Shown: one piece after another, positions 9,177 to 54,791 of the stretch
Position numbering within the stretch: the first letter of the stretch is position 1
Layout: each line of letters starts with the position of its first letter
Assembly: GCA_045600635.1 (NCBI GenBank)
Contig: JAZRYJ010000011.1
Location: 18,440-82,439, forward strand
From: Candidatus Methanarcanum sp.
GTDB taxonomy: Archaea > Thermoplasmatota > Thermoplasmata > Methanomassiliicoccales > Methanomethylophilaceae
Length of the DNA stretch: 64,000 nt
Direction: 5' to 3'
Program-made: the position numbers and the translations under genes
The notes under the pieces: generated by a model
Databases searched by the model: none
Told to the model about the DNA's origin: nothing
The model's input: the letters and a program-made list of their open reading frames with translations, nothing else

Positions 9177-9725
9177 ATGCACGTCATAAAAGGACACGAA
9201 AATGATGCATTGATCATCGGCAGATTCCAGCCATTTCATAAAGGACATCTCGAGGTTATCAGAAAAGTCGCTTCAGAATGCGATCATACCATCATCGGTA
9301 TCGGAAGTGCACAATATTCCCACACGATGGATAACCCGTTCACAGCAGGTGAAAGACATTTGATGATCTCTGAGACGCTCAAGTCTGAAAGGATCGATAA
9401 CATCTCCATAATACCTGTTGAGGACATCAACAGATATTCCGCATGGGTCGCTCATGTGGAATCCATATGTCCTCCGTTCACATTCGTGTATTCCAACAAC
9501 AGCCTTACTAAACGTCTGTTCAATGAAGCAGGATATGTAGTACGTGAATCCCCGATATACAACAGGGACGAATACTCCGGAACCGAGGTCAGAAGGAGGA
9601 TGCTGGAGAACAAGGATTGGAAAAAACTTGTGCCTTTCGAAGTCGCTAAAATCATCAGTGATATTGACGGCGTTACAAGGATAAAGATGATCTCAGGAGA
9701 TTATGATGGCTGCAACGATTGCTGA
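9177..9725 (+). CDS. nadM: Nicotinamide-nucleotide adenylyltransferase
   Basis: IGRFQPFHKGH, NPFTAGER, SGTEVRRRM. The true start is ATG 9177; the ORF-track extension overlaps lonB. Confidence 0.95.
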   Translation: MHVIKGHENDALIIGRFQPFHKGHLEVIRKVASECDHTIIGIGSAQYSHTMDNPFTAGERHLMISETLKSERIDNISIIPVEDINRYSAWVAHVESICPPFTFVYSNNSLTKRLFNEAGYVVRESPIYNRDEYSGTEVRRRMLENKDWKKLVPFEVAKIISDIDGVTRIKMISGDYDGCNDC

Positions 9726-10185
9726 TCTTGCTGATTTACTGTTGAAGAATGACATGAAGCTGTCCCTCGCAGAATCGTGCACGGGCGGCCTCATCAGTAA
9801 CATGATTGTATCTGTACCAGGTTCGTCAGCATATTTTTCAGGTTCCGCTGTCACATATTCGAATGAGTCCAAAGAATCAATACTGTCAGTGAAACATGAT
9901 ACGTTGATCAGATACGGAGCTGTGAGCAGAGAAACTGCAGTTGAAATGGCACTTGGATCCATTAAAATATATGATTCCGATGTCGCAGGTTCCGTGACGG
10001 GCATCGCAGGACCTGACGGCGGTACAGACAACAAACCTGTAGGCGCCGTCTGGATGACTGTGACTGATGGTCTGAGAACGATATCATTCGAAAATCATTT
10101 CAAAGGCAACAGAGATGAGATCAGAAGACAGGCTGCAGAAACTCTCATAGACAATATCTGCGACTTCATAAGAGGTGTACTGTGA
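9703..10185 (+). CDS. cinA: CinA C-terminal domain / NMN deamidase (PncC-like)
   Basis: LAESCTGG, GSSAYF, YGAVSRETA, TGIAGPDGG..KPVG. Confidence 0.92.
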   Translation: MMAATIADLADLLLKNDMKLSLAESCTGGLISNMIVSVPGSSAYFSGSAVTYSNESKESILSVKHDTLIRYGAVSRETAVEMALGSIKIYDSDVAGSVTGIAGPDGGTDNKPVGAVWMTVTDGLRTISFENHFKGNRDEIRRQAAETLIDNICDFIRGVL

Positions 10186-10871
10186 GATACGAAAGACAAC
10201 TGAAAATATTCGGTGCTGAGGGTCAGAAGAAGATAGAGTGTGCACATGTCGCCGTAGCAGGATGCGGTGGGCTCGGATGCAATGTGATCACAGAACTGGC
10301 ATTGGCAGGTGTCGGAAAGATGACTGTTATAGACTCAGATTACATCTCTGAAACCAATCTCAACAGACAATTCATCCATTGCGGACACGGAGGATCCAAA
10401 ACAGATTCTGTGAAGGAATGGCTGATGAAGATATCCAATTGCGATGTGAAAGCCATAAATGCCGAACTTACTGCTGAAAATGTCCTTGATTTCATATCTG
10501 ATGCGGATATAGTTGTGGATTGTCTTGACAACAACAGATCAAGAATCATACTCAATGATGGGATAATCAAAAAGAATGTCCCGTTGGTCCATGGAGGAGT
10601 GAACTCCACATTCGGACAGGTCACATTCATCATCCCCGGAAAAACACCATGCCTCTCATGTATCCTGGGAAAGGATTCCGATGATCACAGTTCCGTTTCA
10701 CCTGCAGTTGCAACTATTGCGTCGATACAGGCAATGGAAGTTCTGAAGTATATCACAGGGAAAGGGGAACTCCTGACCGGCAAATTGCTGACGATGGATC
10801 TCAACACAGATAGATTTGAAACGATTGAGATAAAGAAGAATGTTTCATGCGATTCATGTTCTGAATTGTAA
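10182..10871 (+). CDS. ThiF/MoeB/UbaA-family E1-like adenylyltransferase
   Basis: RYERQ, GCGGLG, NLNRQ, DCLDN, two Zn CxxC pairs (CLSC, CDSC). Confidence 0.92.
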   Translation: MRYERQLKIFGAEGQKKIECAHVAVAGCGGLGCNVITELALAGVGKMTVIDSDYISETNLNRQFIHCGHGGSKTDSVKEWLMKISNCDVKAINAELTAENVLDFISDADIVVDCLDNNRSRIILNDGIIKKNVPLVHGGVNSTFGQVTFIIPGKTPCLSCILGKDSDDHSSVSPAVATIASIQAMEVLKYITGKGELLTGKLLTMDLNTDRFETIEIKKNVSCDSCSEL

Positions 10872-11189
10872 TCAGATATGTTCATTTACGAAACCTATCT
10901 TCTTCTCGTCCTCTTCTCTCACAATCTCGGAAAGCAATTCTCTTGCATATTTTTCTGCTTTCACTCTGTCATTGAAGAAAAAGAACATCACCGAACCTGC
11001 AGGATATACAGTGACACATACATCCTTCCAGTCGAATTTCACAAATTGAGAATTCTTTGTGTATCTTGATTTCATCTCGGAATGCACTCTGTCGATATCG
11101 ACAGGTATCTTATGATCCGGTGTTAGAAGAAGATCCTGTCCCCCACACAGCCTGGTCACAGTGAATCTCAATCCAGAGAAATCTGCCAT
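10872..11189 (-). CDS. Small hypothetical protein with an LCGG motif; paralog of 53691-53957
   Basis: 105-aa ORF that aligns by eye with 53691-53957 (RFxVTRLCGG ... VTxYPxGxVMF ... DRxxAxxYA). Confidence 0.75.
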   Translation of the reverse strand: MADFSGLRFTVTRLCGGQDLLLTPDHKIPVDIDRVHSEMKSRYTKNSQFVKFDWKDVCVTVYPAGSVMFFFFNDRVKAEKYARELLSEIVREEDEKKIGFVNEHI

Positions 11190-51744: not shown

Positions 51745-52686
51745 ATGAGCGGTAAAGTGAGTTTTCTCGGAAGAGATGTCGTCTCAATGAATGATTTTTC
51801 AAGAAAGGATGTAGAATACATTCTGGACCTTGCAGAGAAAATGATCCCGTATGCAAAGGGCGAGAAAACGAATCACAGCCTTCAGGGAAAGATATTGGCC
51901 AACCTGTTCTTCGAACCGTCGACAAGAACAAGAATGTCCTTTGAAAGTGCCGCTCTGAGACTCGGCATAGATGTCATGGACGTCTCCCAGATGTCCGCAA
52001 CATCAATCGCCAAGGGAGAGTCCCTCTCTGATACAATGCACATCATCGACACATATTGTGATGCGATCGTACTGAGACATCCGCACGAAGGAGCGGCAAG
52101 ACTTGCGGCCAATGTCGCTGATAAGCCTGTCATCAATGCAGGCGATGGCGCCGGATCACACCCGACACAGACACTTCTGGATCTGTTCACAATGAGAAGA
52201 TCTAAAGGAACACTCGATGGTCTGAATATCGCTCTCATCGGGGACCTGAAATACGGAAGAACAGTACACTCACTTTCCAATGCGCTGACGATGTTCGGTG
52301 CTAAACTCACATTCGTGGCACCTGAATCACTCCAGATGCCTGACTACATCATAGATTCGCTCAAATCGAAGAACTGCGATCCAGTGAAAACCGACAGACT
52401 TAACGATGTCATCGAAAATGCGGATGTACTTTATGTCACAAGAATTCAAAAGGAGAGATTCCCTGACCCGACTGAATACGAAAAAGTCGCAGGAACATAC
52501 AGGATCGACAATGAGATATTGGGACAGGCGAAGAAAGATCTCATCGTAATGCATCCTCTTCCCAGAGTGGATGAGATTTCTCCTGAGGTCGACAGTACTC
52601 CGCATGCGAAATATTTCGAACAAGCATTCAACGGGATACCGATCAGAATGGCCCTGCTCTTCTCCATACTCGGAGGTGAGATGTGA
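51745..52686 (+). CDS. pyrB: Aspartate carbamoyltransferase, catalytic subunit
   Basis: FFEPSTRTRMSF, NAGDG..HPTQ, TRIQKER, MHPLPR. Confidence 0.98.
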   Translation: MSGKVSFLGRDVVSMNDFSRKDVEYILDLAEKMIPYAKGEKTNHSLQGKILANLFFEPSTRTRMSFESAALRLGIDVMDVSQMSATSIAKGESLSDTMHIIDTYCDAIVLRHPHEGAARLAANVADKPVINAGDGAGSHPTQTLLDLFTMRRSKGTLDGLNIALIGDLKYGRTVHSLSNALTMFGAKLTFVAPESLQMPDYIIDSLKSKNCDPVKTDRLNDVIENADVLYVTRIQKERFPDPTEYEKVAGTYRIDNEILGQAKKDLIVMHPLPRVDEISPEVDSTPHAKYFEQAFNGIPIRMALLFSILGGEM

Positions 52687-53156
52687 TGACTGATGACGAG
52701 AGCAAAGTAGCACGTATAAGGAACGGTACTGTCATTGATCATGTAGAACCCGGGCAGGCTCTGAATGTCTTGAAGATACTGGGTGTCAATGCGAATAATG
52801 TAGGATCCACAATCATTGTGGCGATGCATGTCTTCTCTAAGAAATCCAAATCCGGATGGAAGGACATAGTGAAGATTGAGGATCGTGAACTCGATGAAAC
52901 AACAGTCAACAAGATTGCATTGATCTCTCCGAATGCCTCCATCGTCATCATCAGGGACTACTATGTCGCTGAGAAATACAAGGTCGACATCGGCAAACAT
53001 GTTATAGGCATCGCCAGATGCAGCAATCCGAACTGCATAACCAACATGGGAGAACCTGTCGAACCTGAGTTCAATGTCGTTTCAAAGAACCCTCCTGTTC
53101 TGAAATGCATCTATTGTGAGAGGAACCTCACGAACATCTCAGATAATCTGCTGTGA
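52683..53156 (+). CDS. pyrI: Aspartate carbamoyltransferase, regulatory subunit
   Basis: IRNGTVIDH, KDIVKIE, CSNPNCIT, CIYC. Confidence 0.97.
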   Translation: MMTDDESKVARIRNGTVIDHVEPGQALNVLKILGVNANNVGSTIIVAMHVFSKKSKSGWKDIVKIEDRELDETTVNKIALISPNASIVIIRDYYVAEKYKVDIGKHVIGIARCSNPNCITNMGEPVEPEFNVVSKNPPVLKCIYCERNLTNISDNLL

Positions 53157-53157
53157 T

Positions 53158-53694
53158 ATGATGAAACTGATCATCACTGCTGGGATGCCGGGTGCGGGCA
53201 AAGAAGAATTCCTCATCGCAGCCAGCGACTCAGGCATACCTTTTGTAAGAATGGGGGACATCGTGAGAGAATTCTACGCTAAACGTGATTCCAGAGACAC
53301 TGATCTCTCAACGGGTCAATTCGCCAACATTGAAAGAGAACGTCACGGTTTCGATATATGGGCGAAACGTGCCGTGGAAAAGATGTACGGTGACATCTTC
53401 ATGGTCGACGGATGCAGAAGCATGGATGAAGTGAAAGCTTACCTGAATATCACACCGGATGTTCATGTCATAGGAATATACGCATCCCCCAAGACCAGAT
53501 ATCGGAGATTGGTGGAGCGTGCACGCGAGGATGCTCCGAAGAATATCGATGAATTCAACGAACGCGACAACAGGGAGATCTCATGGGGCCTCGCGAACAC
53601 TATAGCGTTAGCTGACCGCATGATCGTCAACGAATCCTCCCTTGAAGAATTCAAAAAGGCTGTCGTTTCGATAATGGAGGAATTCCGCAGATGA
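53158..53694 (+). CDS. Archaeal UPF0200 nucleotide kinase (dephospho-CoA kinase-like)
   Basis: ITAGMPGAGK, MGDIVRE, VDGCRS..E, RYRRL..R.R.D, ERDNRE..WG. Confidence 0.85.
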   Translation: MMKLIITAGMPGAGKEEFLIAASDSGIPFVRMGDIVREFYAKRDSRDTDLSTGQFANIERERHGFDIWAKRAVEKMYGDIFMVDGCRSMDEVKAYLNITPDVHVIGIYASPKTRYRRLVERAREDAPKNIDEFNERDNREISWGLANTIALADRMIVNESSLEEFKKAVVSIMEEFRR

Positions 53695-53957
53695 GATTCA
53701 ATGTCACAAGATTGTGCGGCGGAAAGGCCCTGATGGCAGCACCCTCTGAGATTATGGATATCGATCTTGACAAAGCATCTGATGTCCTGAAAGATGAATT
53801 CACTATCAAAAGAAATGAAAGCGGAATGATGCTCATAATGGAATGGAAAGAGATGGAAGTTACACTTTATCCCCAGGGCAAGGTAATGTTCCATCCGCTC
53901 TCAGACAGGGATCAGGCCGTTGAATACGCCACAATGATCCTGAACAGATTAAAATGA
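53691..53957 (+). CDS. Small hypothetical protein with an LCGG motif; paralog of 10872-11189
   Basis: ATGA overlap with the upstream kinase; aligns by eye with 10872-11189. Confidence 0.78.
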   Translation: MRFNVTRLCGGKALMAAPSEIMDIDLDKASDVLKDEFTIKRNESGMMLIMEWKEMEVTLYPQGKVMFHPLSDRDQAVEYATMILNRLK

Positions 53958-54791
53958 TCACTTCGAATCATTCAATCTCTTATTGATGCTGCCGGCAACC
54001 TCATTCGGCATGAGCATTGTCGTGACCTTTATGAACGGATGTTTCGAACCTTCGATGATATTCACATCATCCAATGTTCTCAACCCCCATCTCTCCGCGG
54101 TCCTTTCCAATCCAATAGAGACGTCCAGATCGTTGGGCTGCAATACGATGGCTTTGCATTTCTCCAATCCCATCTGATATGCTGCCATTGCTCTGTGGTG
54201 GCCATCTACGATAAGATATCCTCCGCGTCTCTCTACAACGATAAGCGGCTCGGTAAGGCCTTTTCTTATCTCATACTGTCTTCCGATCAGCTCATCCATA
54301 TACACATCCTTCTGTGACGGCCTGAGTTCCTTCACTGGAATGTCCATATTCACAACTTTGATTCTCAGTTCATTCTGTGTCTCCAAAAATGATTTGACGG
54401 ACTGTACTTTGGACGGTCTGCTCTTTTCAATCTGTGAACGTACGATATCGATGTTAGATATTATCCCGACAAGTCTCTTATTCTCATCAACGACAGGGAG
54501 ATTTCTCAGCCCGTATCTGAAAAGAACACGGGTCGCATCGCTGATCTTCATGGAGGGGATGACGCATACTGTTCCACGTTTCATGACCTGACGCATTGTC
54601 GCATCCGGTTTGTCTGTGTATCTCAGAAGATCCTTCGCAGTGACGAATCCCAAAAGGTATCCGTTCTCCGCTATGGGAAAACCATGGAAATTGGAGCCGA
54701 TCATTTTATTGATCGCTTCTCTCACTGTCATCTCCGGCGTGATGTATTTCACATCCCTTACCATGTAATCAGCTACTGTCTCCTCTGCCAT
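53958..54791 (-). CDS. CBS-pair + ParB/sulfiredoxin-domain protein
   Basis: Two CBS repeats (GFPIAE..LLGFVT; LPVVDE..LVGIIS) followed by LRPSQ, PLIV, IVDGHHR. Confidence 0.9.
   Translation of the reverse strand: MAEETVADYMVRDVKYITPEMTVREAINKMIGSNFHGFPIAENGYLLGFVTAKDLLRYTDKPDATMRQVMKRGTVCVIPSMKISDATRVLFRYGLRNLPVVDENKRLVGIISNIDIVRSQIEKSRPSKVQSVKSFLETQNELRIKVVNMDIPVKELRPSQKDVYMDELIGRQYEIRKGLTEPLIVVERRGGYLIVDGHHRAMAAYQMGLEKCKAIVLQPNDLDVSIGLERTAERWGLRTLDDVNIIEGSKHPFIKVTTMLMPNEVAGSINKRLNDSK

Follow-up and report, generated by a model that had tools for sequence, protein, structure and literature searches.

What do two small proteins with the same cysteine motif do in a gut methanogen, and with which of their neighbours do they work? 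The window analysed here, a stretch of 64,000 nucleotides from a contig of Candidatus Methanarcanum sp. (Methanomassiliicoccales, Methanomethylophilaceae), encodes two such proteins, hereafter copy A and copy B, one bordering a gene for an E1-like enzyme and the other a gene for a P-loop kinase. The genes concerned are:

10182-10871, plus strand: short ThiF-family E1-like protein (229 aa), last gene of an NMNAT-CinA-E1 unit, convergent with copy A
10872-11189, minus strand: copy A, 105-aa paralogue whose C-terminal tail is acidic and conserved, lineage-specific second copy; its family Cys is C15 (codon 11145-11147)
51745-52686, plus strand: pyrB, upstream gene of the tightly packed operon of copy B
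52683-53156, plus strand: pyrI, upstream gene of the same operon
53158-53694, plus strand: UPF0200-family P-loop kinase, translationally coupled to copy B, the pair being conserved across the order
53691-53957, plus strand: copy B, 88-aa free-standing protein of predicted TBP fold, of the ancestral, kinase-linked type; its sole Cys is C9 (codon 53715-53717)

Copies A and B are genuine paralogous genes, as the earlier note had proposed: both open reading frames are real and contain the motifs it quoted, and BLASTP aligns 87 residues of the two proteins at 36% identity (E 1e-21). When the 1.53-Mb assembly is searched in full with a profile, these two copies and no others are recovered. Close relatives form 225 clusters for B and 34 for A, so both genes are conserved, and wherever the source names a taxon these relatives belong to Methanomethylophilaceae or Methanomassiliicoccales. 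The TRLCGG motif is invariant in all full-length relatives of both copies. A further homologue search retrieved none but close relatives. B ends in NRLK and A in NEHI, and the family alignments contain no conserved terminal GG for adenylation of the kind found in Ubl sulfur carriers and SAMPs and in arCOG06308 (TBP-like proteins ending in Gly-Gly).

Neither protein matches a Pfam family, single-sequence searches of Pfam and of the PDB giving noise only, while a single-sequence scan with B returns two weak NCBIfam matches, to TBP and to the tail of PRK12475, the latter falling in the C-terminal region (positions 260-331 of 338) of the model NF009123/PRK12475, ‘MoeB/ThiF family adenylyltransferase’. 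The family profile matches M. jannaschii TBP (2z8u, E 1.9e-4), both TBP repeats aligning to one and the same domain. The AlphaFold model of B (pLDDT 94.5) has the order beta1, a Cys-Gly-Gly turn, beta2, alpha1, four strands and alpha2; Foldseek retrieves TBP chains almost exclusively (TM about 0.6), and VIA-align, independent of Foldseek, also places TBP best (Z 9.8, rmsd 2.3 A over 82 residues, with identities of about 14-21% in the structural alignments). The AF2 model of A (pLDDT 88.1) has a B-like core with a short additional helix and a disordered tail, and its top four structural matches are TBPs (Z 8.2-6.9; the next match has Z 5.0). These models predict a single TBP-like half-saddle (beta-alpha-beta4-alpha) with an additional beta-hairpin on its N-terminal side, in agreement with the TBP-like fold that the earlier note had suggested from the strand pattern. 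However, with a single repeat neither A nor B is a TATA-binding protein proper, which has two repeats in tandem forming the DNA saddle; the present domain moreover adds the Cys-bearing hairpin and has no conserved basic surface.

The relationship with the C-terminal domain of MoeB-like enzymes, also put forward in the earlier note, is well supported. Searched exhaustively with a profile (cut-off E 1e-3), 1.84 billion representative proteins gave 65 representative matches. Most of these are free-standing proteins of 75-115 aa, and four of the 65 are ThiF-family proteins (two of them fragments) that carry the domain C-terminally (E 3e-4 to 9e-4); genome searches across Thermoplasmatota found many further E1 fusions of 330-370 aa. 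Among 42 diverse free representatives, 18 match NF009123/PRK12475 (best E 5.5e-7) and 12 match TBP models, and two members weakly match an RNase HIII model. When the free forms (n=42) are aligned with the fused C-terminal domains (n=10) by hhalign, the probability is 99.0% (E 7.4e-18, 81 columns) and the LCGG of the former falls on the LCGR/K of the latter, Cys on Cys. Homology does not extend to the notion of a ‘detached’ domain that arose by gene fission, as the tree does not put the free copies inside the fused clade. No solved structure matches the domain by sequence, and none of those matching the fused E1 reaches into its tail. The family has no Pfam or NCBIfam match to rhodanese, TusA or SufE, none of which is found among the listed fold matches.

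Three open reading frames of 232-304 aa (L079, L081 and L086) had looked like further fusions; none has a Pfam match, and at least the one at L081 is an artefact of ORF calling, its TBP-like frame overlapping an upstream ThiI gene in another frame. In two genomes of family f33 a TBP-like Cys domain lies in frame, with no stop, N-terminal to leucyl-tRNA synthetase (G220:C25:142-399, in L085:130-3219, and G334:C29:20111-20365; open frames of 1029-1032 aa), and these may be either real fusions or two genes sharing a frame by chance.

Copies A and B thus belong to a known domain family that is still uncharacterised. These domains were reportedly first listed by Burroughs, Iyer and Aravind in 2009. 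Their work is cited both by Makarova and Koonin (2010, PMC2948915), who describe the ‘E1 core + TBP’ architecture (arCOG01676) together with small free TBP-like proteins, and by Brindefalk et al. (2013, PMC3597702), who recognise a ‘ThiF-MoeZ-MoeB group’ as well as monopartite TBP-domain proteins and note the absence of functional data. Neither paper mentions the invariant Cys, a function of the domain, the neighbourhood of ThiI or cysteine desulfurase, or a link to UPF0200. The long ThiF/MoeB E1 tail (arCOG01676, NF009123/PRK12475) is homologous to the present proteins and resembles them in its N-terminal xLCGx Cys, in its length and in its predicted topology, whereas the latter are separate proteins of 88 or 105 aa that stand outside the fused clade. 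The monopartite TBP proteins of Euryarchaeota (Brindefalk et al. 2013, Table 3; Thermococcales, 82-136 aa) are likewise single free TBP domains of about 90 aa, sometimes present as two paralogues, but, comparing by description, they are kept apart from the ThiF-MoeB group in the Brindefalk clusters, unlike the family studied here, which joins that group. What is new here is the order-wide coupling to a kinase and the lineage-specific second paralogue.

The cysteine of the domain is conserved, as the reading in the earlier note requires. In the alignment of the 42 free sequences, which has a mean column identity of 27%, only two columns are invariant, i.e., this Cys and a beta-turn Gly also kept by TBP, and the Cys is invariant in all 10 E1-fused domains as well. 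In the model of B it lies in the hairpin turn preceding the TBP core, and kinase-linked members, B included, usually carry no second Cys. The fused E1s retain their own crossover-loop Cys, which argues that the domain is no substitute for that residue. Across groups the pI ranges from 4.3 to 10.3, B being acidic (pI 5.3); such variation in net charge speaks against a nucleic-acid-binding surface conserved in the family.

Of the two copies, B is the ancestral one and occurs across the order. Its overlap coupling to a pyrBI-kinase operon, claimed from the letters of the window, is borne out: the start of B and the stop of the kinase gene share the ATGA at 53691-53694, with a GGAGG 10 nt upstream, a gap of 1 nt separates the kinase gene from the end of pyrI, and the last 4 nt of pyrB belong to pyrI as well. 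Matches to PDB entries 3h0k (SSO1041) and 3lw7 (E 1e-27) place the kinase in the UPF0200 family; the two entries are named at family level only (UPF0200 protein; adenylate kinase related protein) with no substrate assigned, and no functional literature on UPF0200 or SSO1041 was found. The TBP-like family is present in 113 of 121 sampled Methanomassiliicoccales genomes (93 of the 96 of high quality), usually in single copy, and in 30/30 loci from seven families a kinase homologue lies directly upstream on the same strand at a distance of 0 to about 30 nt; these loci were taken from the top of match lists, and related genomes are not independent. Contiguity of pyrBI with the kinase-B pair is restricted, among the loci examined, to the own family; in the remaining families pyrI, if seen at all, is 0.5-1 kb upstream, and at several of the loci examined the sole large ORF in the interval is on the opposite strand. 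Five of eight domain-less genomes were checked, of which three lack both genes, one has the kinase at a contig end, and one, 96% complete, retains the kinase alone.

Copy A presents a different picture. The earlier note had it abutting the stop of the E1-like gene, and the adjacency stands, since the two stop codons touch (10869-10871 for the E1, 10872-10874 for A). The two genes lie on opposite strands, however, and their convergence excludes co-transcription or coupling. The E1-like protein lacks the crossover-loop Cys, having HSSVSPAVA where MoeB has Cys, and its gene follows that of CinA, a context described for arCOG01677 (an assignment made from gene context), whose E1s are CinA-linked and never associated with Ubl genes (Makarova and Koonin, PMC2948915). 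A locus search with the A-family alignment found an orthologue of A in only one other species-level genome (66% identity), where the order purC / A / E1-CinA-NMNAT-LonB is that of the window; its second match, in an Actinomycetota genome, was dismissed as a chance match, and the same search gave no match when copy A by itself was the query. A is absent from three genomes of its own genus and from one of another genus of the family, all of which have LonB-NMNAT-CinA-E1-purC on one strand, with 50-70 nt between E1 and purC. As these relatives keep the E1-purC junction, A is a lineage-specific insertion whose adjacency to the E1 gene says little. In a FastTree phylogeny of low resolution, the sequences being short, A groups with other fast-evolving second copies, and within the kinase-linked clade the sister of this group is the B-type lineage of the own family, which fits an origin of A as a younger duplicate of B. 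Such a duplicate would have gained its acidic tail and landed between the E1 gene and purC.

The unit in which this E1-like gene lies (9183-10871, plus strand) consists of overlapping genes for an NMN adenylyltransferase, a CinA C-terminal (PncC-like) domain protein and the Cys-less E1-like protein. It is conserved in relatives, with LonB upstream and purC downstream, and places an E1-like enzyme among NAD-salvage genes.

Outside the order the domain keeps other company. The family occurs in 174 of 301 sampled Thermoplasmatota genomes, and neighbours were annotated at 40 further loci taken from the top of match lists. Among the 21 free copies counted, i.e., those outside both Methanomassiliicoccales and family f33, a ThiI PP-loop core of roughly 210 aa (PF02568, without THUMP and without rhodanese) lies directly upstream of 10, a class-V aminotransferase of cysteine-desulfurase type directly flanks six, and one or the other is found within 1 kb of all 21. 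Several free copies also have an E1 fusion and Thi4 within 1-2 kb, and further adjacent ThiI/TBP-like pairs were confirmed by the coordinates of an independent ThiI search. In family f33 (ten loci, including L059, L066-L070, L087, L089 and L092) there is no ThiI or desulfurase nearby; upstream is a 361-aa protein with no counterpart in Pfam or NCBIfam and, in the PDB, a local match only, and downstream is Sua5/YrdC of the t6A pathway. Divergent second copies in family f6 (L074-L076) lie behind a protein with the PF04060 ‘FeS’ domain and have as neighbours a DUF169 plus ferredoxin protein, a DGC-domain protein and DUF6951; 2 kb away is a class-V aminotransferase.

Two broader patterns of occurrence were considered and rejected. 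Strict co-occurrence with short ThiI cores fails at the phylum level, family f23 being the counter-example, as ThiI is present in 35 of its 38 genomes (the listed matches being open frames of roughly 210 aa) and the domain in only 3/38. Complementarity with rhodanese was not found at the order level: f3 (40/40 genomes) and f7 (22/24) have both rhodanese and the TBP-like gene, and rhodanese occurs in 7 of 40 own-family genomes.

The genome under study (97% complete) encodes a 208-aa ThiI core on contig C70 (L095:1498-2124) with an SGGxDS motif, a CxxC motif and a third Cys, and with neither THUMP nor rhodanese. Similarly short ThiI open frames occur in many families across Thermoplasmatota. Two strong matches to cysteine desulfurase are present (contigs C15 and C29); searches for rhodanese domains and for ThiS/MoaD found neither. 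All three of its ThiF/E1 genes are short and none has a TBP-like tail; besides the one in the window, one is TcdA-like and one lies in a ubiquitin-E2-JAB operon. The latter, outside the window on contig C30 (L004:1429-3422), is a compact eukaryote-like ubiquitin operon encoding a ThiF E1 of 256 aa, an 81-aa ubiquitin-like protein ending in PEGG-ME, a UQ_con E2 of 159 aa and a JAB protease of 221 aa.

In MoeZ, Uba4 and MOCS3 a rhodanese domain stands at the C-terminus of the E1, and E. coli ThiI carries a rhodanese domain as well; TusA and SufE/CsdE are small persulfide carriers. The present domain resembles rhodanese in being found C-terminal to an E1, beside a ThiI PP-loop core and beside a cysteine desulfurase, and resembles TusA and SufE/CsdE in its small size and in one essential-looking Cys. 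Its predicted fold is seemingly unrelated to theirs and it has no Pfam or NCBIfam match to any of them; the likeness would be one of functional analogy only. Taken together, the invariant thiol, the E1 fusion in the position of rhodanese and the ThiI and desulfurase neighbours make a persulfide relay the most economical reading, and we put at roughly 45% the probability that the free-standing protein is a small cysteine-based relay doing the job of a rhodanese domain. Its Cys would accept a persulfide from a cysteine desulfurase and pass it on to an ATP-dependent thiolation enzyme, either a ThiI-type PP-loop core or an E1, the domain thereby taking the functional slot that rhodanese holds in E. 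coli ThiI and in MoeZ/Uba4/MOCS3. In the present genome the likely clients, acting in trans, would be the 208-aa ThiI core and the two cysteine desulfurases, and copy B would be made from the same transcript as the UPF0200 kinase. We infer both the persulfide chemistry and the service of B to ThiI or a desulfurase in trans; for the earlier idea of a sulfur or Cys donor, it is the context in other genomes that favours it.

Several observations count against such a relay. Its order-wide partner is the UPF0200 kinase, at 30/30 loci, and ThiI or desulfurase is never adjacent there, the relay model leaving the kinase unexplained; in addition, rhodanese complementarity is lacking, the short ThiI genes of f23 mostly occur without the domain, and the ten f33 loci are without sulfur genes. 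The same kinase association is what would be expected if copy B were instead an accessory or regulatory subunit of the kinase in nucleotide (pyrimidine) metabolism, much as PyrI is for PyrB, its Cys serving in redox or ligand sensing. This agrees with the kinase-then-TBP-like order in seven families, with the short gaps (about 0-30 nt, and a 4-nt overlap here), with the own-family pair following pyrBI without a gap, and with the three domain-less genomes that also lack the kinase; KA1 domains of eukaryotic kinases are among the weaker fold matches, at fold level only. Yet no UPF0200 neighbour is found at any sampled free or fused copy outside the order, no kinase fusion occurs among the 65 representative matches of any length, the 96%-complete genome has the kinase and not the domain, and 3h0k and 3lw7 assign the kinase no substrate. 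A subunit of this kind would also leave the invariant Cys and the wider links to E1, ThiI and desulfurase unexplained, and we regard it as unlikely.

Less probable still is a nucleic-acid-binding module, comparable to TBP or to the N-domain of RNase HIII, that would bind tRNA for a THUMP-less ThiI or act as a small DNA-binding regulator. TBP is indeed the best structural match, two members weakly match the RNase HIII model, THUMP, an RNA-binding domain, is missing from the partner ThiI cores, and some databases label relatives as transcription regulators or TBP; but charge is not conserved in the family (pI 4.3-10.3, 5.3 in B), the single invariant residue peculiar to it is a Cys, which lies on the additional hairpin and not in the TBP core, one half-saddle cannot make the DNA saddle of TBP, and an E1 enzyme has no evident need of an RNA-binding tail. 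A partnership with the E1-like enzyme at 10182-10871, the other proposal of the earlier note, now appears very improbable; here the free domain, accepting a thioester or acyl group as an E2 does, would provide in trans the Cys that the enzyme lacks. The HSSVSPAVA stretch in place of the Cys, the abutment of A and its recurrence in one other species, and the fusion of the domain to E1s elsewhere all speak for it. On the other side, A is convergent and is not co-transcribed with the E1, the three same-genus genomes and the one from another genus keep E1-purC and do without A, the CinA-linked context is that of arCOG01677, reported never to be Ubl-associated (PMC2948915), the fused E1s keep a crossover-loop Cys of their own, and no ThiS/MoaD-type substrate was detected in the genome.

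If, as the persulfide relay would have it, the Cys carries sulfur, this would explain how sulfur is fed to stripped-down ThiI cores and E1s in rhodanese-less archaea, and would give the TBP fold a catalytic role. A broader version, which we hold only tentatively, is that the single-Cys TBP fold represents a new structural class of persulfide carrier that stands in for rhodanese or TusA in many archaea and was recruited to the UPF0200 kinase in Methanomassiliicoccales; were it true, gut methanogens would possess an undescribed step of ATP-dependent thiolation or sulfur activation. Should the sulfur idea fail, these would be ordinary conserved hypothetical proteins with a domain architecture already published. 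The family is in any case near-universal in Methanomassiliicoccales, where close relatives are labelled as gut or rumen Methanomethylophilaceae, and widespread in Thermoplasmatota, and the coupling across the order provides a first functional handle on the orphan UPF0200 kinase family.

Two further observations concern the surroundings of the kinase-linked copies. In the window, copy B is followed stop to stop by a convergent gene (53958-54791, minus strand) whose product has tandem CBS domains as well as a ParB-N-like domain, and similar CBS-ParB matches also lie near the kinase-B pair in two other loci. Finally, several f3 genomes have tandem TBP-like duplicates about 50 nt apart, e.g., at G113:C5:119363-119935 and G065:C1:1034841-1035414.
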